Part shown: in pieces, positions 25,698 through 27,858 of the stretch
How the letters are laid out: each line of letters opens with the position of its first letter
Position numbering within the stretch: position 1 is the first letter of the stretch
Assembly: GCA_022843285.1 (NCBI GenBank)
Contig: JALHNY010000006.1
Coordinates: 1 to 52,014 of the forward strand
Length of the DNA: 52,014 nucleotides
Direction: 5' to 3'
Source of the DNA: Minisyncoccota bacterium
Lineage (GTDB): Bacteria; Patescibacteriota; Minisyncoccia; UBA6257; 2-01-FULL-56-20
The notes under the pieces: generated by a model
What the model was told of the DNA's origin: nothing
Databases searched by the model: none
The model's input: only the letters and a program-made list of their open reading frames with translations
Made by a program: the position numbers and the translations under genes

Positions 25698-27341
25698 CTA
25701 CCCACCGAGCAGTTCCTCCACCTTCTCCCTGCCCAGGGACAGGAAGAACGTCGGCAACCTCGGGCCCGTCTCGCTGTCCACGAGCAGCAGCTGGTACAGC
25801 GCGATGAAGAACGCCCTCTGCCTCGCCTTCACCTCGGGGGTCGGGTCATCCTCGGGAGAAGATCCGGCTGCCACCTTCGGGATGCTGTACAGGAGGTGCG
25901 TCAGCCCCTCGAGGGACCAGTTTCCCTCGAGGCTCGCGCGGAGGTTGGCAACCTGCGCGCGCACGTCCTCTGCCAGCGCGGCGTGCACGTCCGCGGCGAA
26001 GGACGGACGGACGTGCGTGCGCTCGTCCTCCGGCAGGTACCGCGTCACCCAGTTGACGGCGCACGTCAGACGCGGCTCCACGTCCGCCTCGGAGAGCTCA
26101 CCACTCCCCTGCTGCTCGCGGGCAACGCGCATGATCTGCTCGCGGCTGCCCACCGTCACGTCAGCTGCGGAGGACAGCGTGCGGAACGGCACCGGCACGC
26201 GCGACGCGAGCACCGGGCCGGCCGACGTAGCGAGGCAGCGCTCTCGCACGAGCGATTCCGCCTCGCCCGCCTCACCCGCCGAGGTGCGCGCGCCGAACGT
26301 GTCCCACTCGTCGTACAGGCGGATTACCTCCACGCCGAAGTCGACGTCGAAGCGGCGCGCGTGGTGGCGGCGAATGTAGAGCCAGCGGACCATGGCGGGC
26401 TCGAGGATGTCGAGTGCCTGCGAGGGCGTGGGGCTGCCACCAGCGGAGCTGGAGATCTTTGAGCGCCCGGCCATGCCCACGAACGTGTACGAGATGAAGT
26501 ACGGCGCCCCGTGCTTGAAGAGCGGCACGATGTCCTTGCCCACCGAGTAGCTGCTGCTGGGTGCCGCGTGATCCTCTCCCGCCGGCTCGAACGTCACGTT
26601 CTCGTACGCCCAGCGCATCGGCCAGTCCACCTTCCAGACGAGCTTGCCCTGCACCTTGTCCCTGAGCGAGTAGCTCTCGTGGTGCCCGCACGCGCAGAAG
26701 TACGTGATGGTCGCGGACGCAGGATCGTACCCCTCGACGGTGGTGTCGTCCTTGCCGCAGCCCAGGCAGTACGGCTTGAACGGGTAGTACGTGGCGCGGC
26801 GCTCCTCGATGGATCGGTCGTGGCGGTTCGGCGTCTGGTGGCGCGCGAGCACATCGAAGATTTCCCCCCGGTGCTCCATGGCGGCCAGGATGCCGTCACG
26901 GTAGTCGCCGCGGGGGTACGCCACGGACTGGCGAATGTAGCGCACGTTCTTTCCCGCGACGATGCCCAGTCGCTCGGCAGCTGCCTCAAACTCGGCGATG
27001 TGCCGGTCGGCGTAGGACGGGTACTCGCCGGACGGGTCCGGCACCGACGCGAGCGGCTTCCCGATGTGCTCGGCGAATGACTCGGGGACGCCGGCGGGAA
27101 CCTTGCGGAACCGGTCGTAGTCATCCCACGAGTGGATGTGCTCGGCCCTGCGCCCGCGCCGCTTCAGCTCCTCGACCACGAGGTGGACGGTCATGACCTC
27201 GCGGAGGTTGCCGAGGTGGATGGACCCGGACGGGCTCACCCCGGAGGCGCACACGATGGTCTCGGGAGGGTTTGGCTTGGACGCGGCGTACGCCTCGACG
27301 GCATCCGCGGTCTGCTCTATCCAGTAGCGCTCTTCGGCCAT
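25698..27341 (-). CDS. lysS: Class I lysyl-tRNA synthetase
   Basis: ASGVSPSGSIHLGNLRE, WDDYDRFRKVP, KLVWKVDWPMRW, FEPAGEDH, KISSSAG and GPRLPTF motifs; start moved to MAEER. Confidence 0.95.
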   Translation of the reverse strand: MAEERYWIEQTADAVEAYAASKPNPPETIVCASGVSPSGSIHLGNLREVMTVHLVVEELKRRGRRAEHIHSWDDYDRFRKVPAGVPESFAEHIGKPLASVPDPSGEYPSYADRHIAEFEAAAERLGIVAGKNVRYIRQSVAYPRGDYRDGILAAMEHRGEIFDVLARHQTPNRHDRSIEERRATYYPFKPYCLGCGKDDTTVEGYDPASATITYFCACGHHESYSLRDKVQGKLVWKVDWPMRWAYENVTFEPAGEDHAAPSSSYSVGKDIVPLFKHGAPYFISYTFVGMAGRSKISSSAGGSPTPSQALDILEPAMVRWLYIRRHHARRFDVDFGVEVIRLYDEWDTFGARTSAGEAGEAESLVRERCLATSAGPVLASRVPVPFRTLSSAADVTVGSREQIMRVAREQQGSGELSEADVEPRLTCAVNWVTRYLPEDERTHVRPSFAADVHAALAEDVRAQVANLRASLEGNWSLEGLTHLLYSIPKVAAGSSPEDDPTPEVKARQRAFFIALYQLLLVDSETGPRLPTFFLSLGREKVEELLGG

Positions 27342-27365
27342 GGTGCCATTGTACGTTCCGCGCAC

Positions 27366-27390
27366 AAACGAAAACAGCCCCTCGGGGCTG
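27366..27390 (-). terminator. Intrinsic terminator after greA
   Basis: CAGCCC-CGAG-GGGCTG followed by TTTTCGTTT. Confidence 0.65.
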
Positions 27391-27402
27391 CTCTCTCCGC
27401 CG

Positions 27403-27858
27403 CTACGAGATTGCCTCGATCTGGTAGTGGACGGGACCAGACGGCGTGATGACCGTCACCTTGTCCCCCGCCTTCGCCCCCAGGAACGCGCGGCCGAGCG
27501 GTGACTCGTTGCTGATCTTGTTCGCGGTCGGGTCCGCCTCCTCTGAGCCGACGATCTCGTACTCCACGGACTTCGCGCCCTTCTTCACTTTCACGATGGA
27601 GCCAATCTCGACGTGGTCGCTCTTGTGGTGCGTGATGATCTCGGCGTGCTTGATCATCTCCTCGAGCTCGACGATGCGCATCTCGACGCGCTCCTGCTCG
27701 AGGCGGGCCTCGTCGTACGCGGTGTTCTCAGAGAGGTCGCCGAGGTCTTTTGCCTCGCGCAGGCGATCAGCCACCTCGCGGCGGCGCTCGGTCTTGTACT
27801 GCTCGAGCTCGGCTTTGAGCTCATCGAGCCTCTTCTGGGTTACGTAGTATTTGTCCAT
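27403..27858 (-). CDS. greA: Transcription elongation factor GreA
   Basis: GDLSENTAYDEA, EADPTANKISNESPLGRA; start moved to MDKYY. Confidence 0.97.
   Translation of the reverse strand: MDKYYVTQKRLDELKAELEQYKTERRREVADRLREAKDLGDLSENTAYDEARLEQERVEMRIVELEEMIKHAEIITHHKSDHVEIGSIVKVKKGAKSVEYEIVGSEEADPTANKISNESPLGRAFLGAKAGDKVTVITPSGPVHYQIEAIS

Follow-up and report, generated by a model that had tools for sequence, protein, structure and literature searches.

In one genus of high-GC, Saccharibacteria-type Patescibacteria, the class II lysyl-tRNA synthetase (LysRS) gene lysS has very probably been displaced in situ by a horizontally acquired class I gene, lysK, which lies behind greA in the window (the whole 52,014-nucleotide stretch of DNA analysed here). 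The host is not a Firmicute. To our knowledge, no aminoacyl-tRNA synthetase other than LysRS occurs as two unrelated classes, and the patchy distribution of these classes is a textbook instance of lateral transfer putting one gene in the place of a functional equivalent. The swap is of a known kind, and the locus is a new and clean example of it, recurrent in the Patescibacteria group.

The lysK gene spans positions 25698..27341 on the minus strand and encodes 547 residues when read from the ATG at 27341. Use of an in-frame upstream GTG at 27365 would extend the reading frame to 25698..27365 (minus strand, 555 residues); the ATG is the more likely start, as it gives an N-terminus, MAEERYWIEQTAD, common to the homologues, and the resulting 547-residue protein is identical to database entry P0001. 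The first-pass annotation had called the gene an unambiguous class I LysRS, and profile and structure comparisons bear this out. The reading frame matches the Pfam family PF01921 (tRNA-synt_1f; E-value of 1.7e-98, 330 bits, cut-off 27) and TIGR00467 (lysS_arch; 316.3 bits, cut-off 147.55), the latter over model positions 16–509 of 515. It is homologous over nearly its full length to the LysRS1 of P. horikoshii (PDB entry 1IRX; query residues 24–541 with chain residues 17–515, E-value of 1.5e-78), and this alignment takes in the C-terminal anticodon-binding region. The HIGH-type motif reads HLGN in LysK and HVGN in 1IRX, the KMSKS-type motif reads KISSS and KMSGS, respectively, and residues H42, G44, N45, K295 and S297–S299 are invariant among 26 homologues. 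The P. horikoshii enzyme is archaeal, however, and is far more diverged from LysK than LysK is from the enzymes of its own bacterial clade.

The slot that lysK occupies holds a class II gene in the closest relatives. Six sister genera within the family (G002, G013, G007, G011, G004 and G008) share the gene string secY-adk-map-(GT2)-greA-lysS with lysS of class II, and a convergent dnaE is visible after lysS in all of these genomes except G002. The window's genome (G000) and a second genome of the same genus (G001) have an identical string except that lysK fills the slot and faces dnaE; class I in this position is restricted to this genus as against the six sister genera. The flanks are greA (27403..27858, minus strand; transcription elongation factor, PF03449 and PF01272, NF001263 at 171 bits with a cut-off of 145), a GT2 glycosyltransferase gene (27881..28840, minus strand; PF00535, E-value of 1.6e-27), and dnaE (21904..25089, plus strand; DNA polymerase III alpha, NF005298 at 1320 bits), which forms the convergent downstream boundary. 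The glycosyltransferase belongs to the native upstream flank (map-GT2-greA) and is found in the same position in G001, G007, G011, G004, G008, G013 and family f21. The window greA is 50–57% identical to the sister-genome greA genes in the same position, the sister dnaE and secY genes are 56–61% identical to those of the window, and the sister class II enzymes are 60–65% identical among themselves. Adjacency of greA and class II lysS also occurs in families f13, f14, f16 and f17 of the order. Given class II after greA in six sister genera and four further families, class I is not ancestral at this locus. The in-place non-orthologous replacement proposed by the first-pass annotation, which had recommended establishing the class that follows greA in sister genomes, is thereby supported. 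Between G000 and G001, identity is 74% for LysK, 80% for greA, 77% for dnaE, 70% for secY, 67% for GT2, 65% for map and 54% for adk, a pattern that would fit vertical descent since one acquisition.

The phylogeny of the enzyme, also recommended as a check, points the same way, grouping LysK with enzymes from outside the Patescibacteria. In a tree that leaves out one row (L069, a wrong ORF), the window clade (support 100/100) falls inside clade C (97/99) together with enzymes of Chloroflexota, Acidobacteriota and Actinomycetota; clade C also holds Armatimonadota and Myxococcota enzymes. LysK is 51–59% identical to named enzymes from Anaerolineae, Pyrinomonadaceae, Ktedonobacteria and Nocardia, and only 21–38% identical to class I enzymes from elsewhere in the Patescibacteria. 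Constraining the two class I types of the family to be monophyletic lowers the likelihood by 517 lnL units (AU p of 2e-48). By this phylogenetic evidence, LysK is shown to be of foreign (xenologous) origin, from other bacteria. Clade C is a polytomy, and the AU test does not reject a tree in which the window clade branches at the base of clade C, next to the other Patescibacteria clades (p of 0.40). The closest database proteins are P0002, P0003 and P0005–P0007, of which the last three are the nearest outgroup proteins (59–64% identity) and form a 100/100 sister group; a metagenome scan for LysK relatives gave nothing above 58% identity. None of the 86 clade-C loci examined (six named and 80 from metagenomes) carries greA, dnaE, GT2 or map near lysK; with no greA nearby in any of them, the greA-lysK adjacency arose in the recipient.

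That recipient might have been an unsampled Patescibacteria lineage in which class I already stood behind greA, from which the greA-lysK pair was then imported ready-made. The P0005–P0007 sister group leaves room for such a source, and in family f43 the class I genes that stand behind a monophyletic set of greA genes belong to two distinct clades, so slot content has been exchanged among Patescibacteria; the greA tree behind this observation is unresolved, has a wrong ORF in its G001 row and is informative only for family f43. We nevertheless consider a cassette import improbable: no other genome with a window-type enzyme was found in the order sample (401 genomes), the class sample (401) or the whole family (125), the window greA is most similar to that of its own family (56%), and synteny marks dnaE, secY and map as native. 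The first insertion into the slot would, moreover, still need explaining. Saccharibacteria are naturally competent (PMC10633639), which would allow such a cassette to enter by natural transformation and to recombine homologously at the conserved flanks, a route to which we attach correspondingly little weight.

Direct displacement of a resident class II gene also accords better with the distribution of the two classes than an ancestral class I gene at the locus does. Class I LysRS is present in five of the 125 genomes of the family (two of 48 genera) and in 13 of 401 genomes of the order sample; of the 401 genomes in the class sample, 13 carry class I and 381 carry class II, and 12 of the 13 class I genomes lack class II. 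Were class I ancestral and class II re-acquired in the slot by all other genera, many parallel gains of class II would be needed, in the six sister genera and four other families, and the sister class II enzymes, at 60–65% identity to one another, are comparable with dnaE and secY in conservation, as vertical descent would predict. Reversals of LysRS class are documented in alphaproteobacteria (PMC1475646), and the AU test permits the basal placement within clade C, but we regard this history as extremely improbable. Equally negligible is an assembly or binning artefact, in which the class I gene would be a contaminant from a high-GC soil bacterium: G000 is a 782-kb metagenome-assembled genome (MAG) of 22 contigs, about 95% complete, and the nearest named lysK homologues are from high-GC soil taxa, but this reading is refuted by the synteny common to two independent assemblies, with lysK flanked by native syntenic genes on a 52-kb contig and the same greA-lysK arrangement in an independent MAG (row L029, 121-kb contig); lysK matches the flanking genes in composition (GC 0.68, GC3 0.91), and contamination is estimated at 0.49%.

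A search for class II lysS, the remaining check advised by the first-pass annotation, found none in G000 or G001 and leaves class I as the only LysRS found; with G000 about 95% complete, this absence is not absolute. Searches of both genomes with TIGR00499 gave nothing above 105 bits, the only match being an AspRS-like paralogue at approximately 104 bits, and tblastn with the six sister class II enzymes recovered the AspRS-like gene only. In the lysK-dnaE and greA-lysK spacers of both genomes, class II remnants were not detected by tblastn (E-values of at least 0.1, chance level) or by six-frame searches with a six-enzyme HMM (hmmsearch --max, all bit scores negative). No intermediate with adjacent class I and class II genes was found.

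These observations can be accommodated in a single history. The ancestor of the genus would have carried the order-typical secY-adk-map-GT2-greA-lysS string, with class II lysS facing convergent dnaE. A class I lysK would have been gained horizontally from a bacterium of clade C and have landed in the short gap that separates greA from dnaE, after which the resident lysS would have been lost without trace. The path of insertion followed by deletion is inferred, as neither a class II remnant nor an adjacent two-gene intermediate was found to mark it. The swap would postdate the separation of the genus from its sister genera and predate the divergence of G000 and G001.

The substrates appear to have been left as they were. 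A tRNA-Lys(CTT), placed in the window by the first-pass annotation, is located by ARAGORN at 47576..47649 (plus strand) and would be the main substrate of LysK; AAG makes up 89% of the lysine codons in seven local genes. G000 also encodes tRNA-Lys(UUU). As LysK is the sole LysRS in two genomes that encode tRNA-Lys(CUU) and tRNA-Lys(UUU), it presumably lysylates both, neither of them remodelled, and acts as the cell's only, functional LysRS. The annotation had further reasoned that a sole LysRS would have to be of a CUU-accepting type: the CUU isoacceptor is indeed there, alongside the UUU one, but the concern is minor because the one class I LysRS studied has its anticodon determinants at U35 and U36 rather than at position 34 (PMC9976931). 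In G000 and G001, both tRNA-Lys species carry C2-G71 and A73, as in the class II sisters, and the window tRNA-Lys is 85–94% identical to the tRNA-Lys of these sisters; comparison of G000 and G001 with the sisters revealed no co-adaptation of tRNA-Lys to the class I enzyme. The Borrelia-type G2-U71 pair, which the B. burgdorferi LysRS1 requires and which serves as a class II antideterminant (PMC9976931), is absent from both tRNA-Lys species in both genomes, in contrast to the situation in Borrelia. The locus thus constitutes a clean natural experiment, in which an essential translation gene was exchanged in a genome of approximately 0.8 Mb while its tRNA substrates stayed the same; the sister genera preserve the state before the exchange.

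The intergenic region between greA and lysK is 62 nt long. It contains a terminator-like hairpin with a U-rich tail (27370..27395, minus strand), located 3′ of the greA stop codon and folding as RNA into an 11-bp stem, and a TACAAT box (27348..27353, minus strand), read directly, that lies 6 nt before the ATG and is a candidate −10 element for lysK. In G001, a stronger GC hairpin and a T-run follow greA, and the TACAAT-N6-ATG arrangement is kept despite differing flanking sequence. An opposite-strand ORF sits between greA and lysK in that genome, so its lysK must have its own promoter. The first-pass annotation had described a greA terminator followed by a −10 of lysK's own. For the terminator, the hairpin and its tail stand, but the minimum free energy of the region (−31.1 kcal/mol) is only modestly lower than that of shuffled sequences (z of −1.99), and a consensus scan did not list the hairpin at 27370–27395. 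For the −10, the motif is present in both members of the genus, but the same scan of the spacer found no full sigma-70 promoter, so that the function of TACAAT is putative. Judged from the motif and its conservation, lysK is probably transcribed from this box behind the greA hairpin, and its mRNA is possibly leaderless. In the few clade-C loci for which the start could be set, sequences resembling Shine–Dalgarno motifs lie upstream and TACAAT-N6-start does not occur; import of a leaderless promoter with the gene was rejected on this basis, a weak test in that the start-finding pattern failed for most clade-C loci.

Omelchenko et al. (2003, Genome Biol 4:R55) reportedly described in-situ gene displacement inside conserved operons. 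The window resembles such cases in that an unrelated, functionally equivalent gene stands at the ancestral position of a conserved string, and its group differs from them in that three class I clades, deeply separated from one another, have come to fill the slot in different lineages of one order and class. The LysRS1 enzymes of Streptomyces and other Actinomycetota, Chloroflexota and Acidobacteriota belong to the same clade C (44–59% identity to LysK) and, like LysK, have the same length and motifs and are encoded by a stand-alone housekeeping gene. Unlike theirs, the host here is a 0.78-Mb, epibiont-like Saccharibacteria-type organism, and its lysK lies behind greA. LysRS class switching by lateral transfer is known from Borrelia/Treponema, alphaproteobacteria and Streptomyces (Shaul et al. 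2006, PMC1475646); there, as proposed for the window, a laterally acquired class I gene replaces class II, which is then lost, and both enzymes serve the same tRNA-Lys. The present replacement differs in being resolved to a single genus and an exact chromosomal slot, and in that no surviving two-enzyme stage is seen in its lineage. In Bacillus cereus, a laterally acquired class I lysK is under T-box control and class II is kept as the main enzyme (PMC2916919), whereas in the window class I is the only LysRS and the spacer is too short for a T-box leader.

Two further class I clades, A and B, deeply different from each other and from clade C, are found in the slot behind greA in further lineages of the order and class to which the genus belongs. 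The presence of three class I clades behind greA in relatives suggests that position matters in the replacement of an essential gene. That clades A, B and C each independently displaced class II, or one another, at this site is a tentative proposal that we think rather unlikely to hold in full; similarly doubtful is the notion that the position after greA is a selected or mechanistically favoured home for the LysRS of Patescibacteria. If true, it would imply coupled expression of GreA and LysRS, or a terminator-flanked junction permissive for insertion in dense genomes. In the same vein, and with as little weight, contact of these epibionts with class-II-targeting lysine analogues or inhibitors, in the soil or the host environment, could have prompted the class switch. 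For the annotation and metabolic reading of CPR genomes, the class of LysRS should not be assumed from taxonomy.

Between lysK and dnaE lies an ORF of 162 codons (25141..25629, minus strand), an uncertain gene with a hydrophobic product. It has no Pfam or NCBIfam match, it does not resemble the 141-residue ORF found at this position in G001, and none of the fetched donor-clade or sister loci has a homologue; it was thus rejected as a co-transferred or conserved gene and stays an orphan. An origin as a remnant of class II lysS was ruled out by the tblastn and HMM searches. A terminator-like hairpin follows dnaE at 25094–25117.

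The product of lysK, an open reading frame (ORF) on the minus strand at 25698..27365, is a class I lysyl-tRNA synthetase (LysRS), with matches to PF01921 (E = 1.7e-98) and TIGR00467 (316 bits, curated cut-off 147.55 bits). The P. horikoshii enzyme of solved structure (1IRX) aligns with it across nearly the full length (E = 1.5e-78), which puts HLGN and KISSS where HIGH and KMSKS, respectively, are expected; the residues of both motifs are unchanged across an alignment of 26 homologues. Since the homologues, like the database copy P0001, have N termini that begin at ATG 27341, this codon is taken as the probable start, giving a protein of 547 aa. 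Directly upstream, as the first-pass annotation had correctly placed it, is greA (27403..27858), with both GreA domains and an NF001263 match above cut-off. Downstream, a small, hydrophobic orphan ORF of 162 aa (25141-25629, minus strand) separates lysK from the convergent dnaE (21904..25089). G001, the only other genome of the genus, also has a small, hydrophobic orphan ORF between lysK and dnaE (141 aa; L133:8605-9030, minus strand), and no similarity is detectable between the two.

The host is a Patescibacteria/CPR genome of the Saccharibacteria type, not a Firmicute. The genome (782 kb in 22 contigs, the window being contig 6) has an estimated completeness of 94.8%, an estimated contamination of 0.5% and a GC content of approximately 64%. 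Across the syntenic region (window and L133-L139), GC is 0.64-0.67 in the genus versus 0.41-0.55 in sister genera of the same family, a large compositional shift inside one family of reduced genomes.

The class I enzyme is the only LysRS found in either genome. A whole-genome TIGR00499 search detected no class II LysRS in the window's genome, the best result being a 104-bit match to a 656-codon AspRS-like frame (contig 1, 29923-31227; L001, L183), the sole class IIb synthetase seen. A tblastn search of this genome with the class II enzymes of six sisters returned the same paralogue and nothing more, and the TIGR00499 result was the same for G001. AsnRS was not found in the window's genome, where Asn-tRNA is presumably made via the indirect pathway.

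The gene for tRNA-Lys(CUU) lies inside the window, that for tRNA-Lys(UUU) on contig 1. Because lysine is encoded by AAG at 103 of 116 positions in seven genes near lysK, the CUU isoacceptor is predicted to be the main substrate. The tRNA-Lys genes of the genus retain C2-G71 and A73, and are 85-94% identical to those of class II-using sisters. LysRS1 of B. burgdorferi requires a G2-U71 pair (PMC9976931), which is absent from the tRNA-Lys of the genus, where C2-G71 stands instead. The anticodon determinants of that enzyme are U35 and U36, position 34 not being among them (PMC9976931). The first-pass annotation held that a sole class I enzyme must be of a CUU-accepting type; this is a minor concern given the U35/U36 determinants.

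Class II LysRS is present in all of 40 relatives but two, G001 and a MAG of 77% completeness, and no true class I match was detected among these genomes apart from G001. The string secY-adk-map-(GT2)-greA-lysS(class II) is conserved in six sister genera (G002, G013, G007, G011, G004 and G008; tblastn with the window's genes), with the convergent dnaE visible downstream in all but G002, and a greA-lysS gap in sister genera ranging from overlap to 130 nt. Both genomes of the window's genus have the same string, but with lysK between greA and dnaE. Four further families of the order also show greA-lysS(II) adjacency and, on the basis of these families and the six sister genera, class II is the ancestral state behind greA. 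This goes against the alternative that the first-pass annotation named as its refutation, a class I enzyme ancestral at the locus. The in-place non-orthologous replacement proposed in the first-pass annotation is therefore borne out, as a real and well-supported genus-level event in which class I LysRS took the place of class II in a Saccharibacteria-type genome. An independent MAG (G001) has this gene order too, on a 121-kb contig, which rules out an assembly artefact. GT2, present between map and greA in most relatives, is missing in G002 (L134), so the upstream flank of greA is variable too.

The closest sequences to the window LysK are P0002 (82% identity), the G001 enzyme (74%) and P0003 (72%), then P0005-P0007 (59-64%), then enzymes of Anaerolineae, Pyrinomonadaceae, Ktedonobacteria, Nocardia/Pseudonocardiaceae and Streptomyces (44-59%). 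A maximum-likelihood tree of 57 class I LysRS sequences has three deep clades: A (support 100/99; Nomura-, Zambryski- and Kaiserbacteria-type Patescibacteria), B (100/100; Moranbacteria-type Patescibacteria) and C (97/99; Actinomycetota, Chloroflexota, Acidobacteriota, Armatimonadota and Myxococcota). The seven-sequence window clade (100/100) is placed within clade C, with non-Patescibacteria and apart from clades A and B. The class I enzyme of another genus of the same family, g337, belongs to clade A (36% identical to the window's), and that of family f21 to clade B (23-29%). A single clade for the family's two class I types is 517 log-likelihood units worse (AU p = 2e-48, for a group chosen after the tree was seen). 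The tree singles out no donor lineage inside clade C, which is a polytomy, and an AU test does not reject a window clade placed at its base beside clades A and B (p = 0.40). None of greA, dnaE, GT2, map, adk and secY lies near lysK at six named clade C loci or at 80 metagenome loci encoding an enzyme of the window type (46-58% identity, flank up to 6 kb); the greA-lysK adjacency would have arisen in the recipient, not in the donor.

The 74% identity between the two LysK proteins of the genus is bracketed by that of the flanking genes (greA 80%, dnaE 77%, secY 70%, GT2 67%, map 65%, adk 54%), and lysK resembles these genes in composition (GC 0.68, GC3 0.91). A single acquisition before the split of the two genomes, with vertical descent since, would fit. 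Because both lack a class II lysS remnant, we infer the path: in the favoured scenario, foreign DNA would have entered the junction that holds lysS, which is flanked by terminators and lies between greA and the convergent dnaE, and lysS would then have been deleted. Between greA and lysK, G001 carries a 130-codon orphan ORF in the opposite orientation (L133:10815-11207, plus strand), with a strong Shine-Dalgarno site (GGAGG), a bidirectional GC hairpin common to it and greA, no family and no counterpart in the window's genome. Its insertion there shows that the junction is permissive. Saccharibacteria are naturally competent (PMC10633639), and competence is a possible uptake route.

Behind the greA stop lie a hairpin of 11 bp and a stretch rich in U, and TACAAT lies 6 nt upstream of the lysK ATG, kept in G001 despite a divergent surrounding spacer. 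The first-pass annotation gave lysK its own -10 after a greA terminator; these elements agree with it, but a consensus scan found no promoter upstream of lysK. As TACAAT is conserved and the intervening opposite-strand gene precludes co-transcription with greA in G001, a lysK-specific promoter yielding a leaderless or near-leaderless mRNA is plausible but unproven. The start context, GGCACC-ATG (27336-27353, minus strand), is without a Shine-Dalgarno site.

Exchange of a class II LysRS for a laterally acquired class I enzyme is established in Streptomyces, spirochetes and alphaproteobacteria, and is thought to go through a two-enzyme stage (PMC1475646). One proposed advantage of class I is lower sensitivity to lysine analogues. 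In situ displacement within conserved gene strings was reportedly described by Omelchenko et al. in 2003. The kind of event is thus already known and this genus adds another case; our literature search found no published link between class I LysRS and either Patescibacteria or Saccharibacteria.

Class I LysRS occurs in 5 of 125 genomes of the whole family (48 genera), confined to the window's genus and g337. In the order sample it is found in 13 of 401 genomes (the window's genome, g337 and 10 of 41 genomes of f21), and in the class sample in 13 of 401, with class II in 381. Twelve of the 13 class I genomes in the class sample are without class II.

Across related lineages, three different class I clades have come to refill this one slot. 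In f21, each of nine class I loci inspected reads GT2-greA-lysK(B), as far as contigs extend. Elsewhere in the class sample, in other orders, clade B enzymes directly follow greA in families f27, f43 and f102, and clade A enzymes in f43 and genome G061. The greA genes of f43 are monophyletic (100/98), yet the enzyme behind them is of clade A in one genus and of clade B in a second. In all, the greA slot has thus come to hold at least three class I clades that are unrelated to one another. Clade A also occurs outside it: lysK is 8-10 kb from greA in g337 and approximately 45 kb away on the same contig in G083. In G347 and G255, lysK and greA are on separate contigs.

The remaining class I genome of the class sample, G255 (low GC), has both enzymes on different contigs (class I, C34:310-1857, L142; class II, C17:1275-2720, L141; greA on C8, L143), neither gene adjoining greA within the fetched DNA, and may represent a two-enzyme stage. 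Within genus g49 of f21, G362 (L187) has class I behind greA, and G859 (L188) has, at a locus lacking greA, a divergent class II enzyme that is 45% identical to the family f1 enzyme; reversal or polymorphism may account for the difference.
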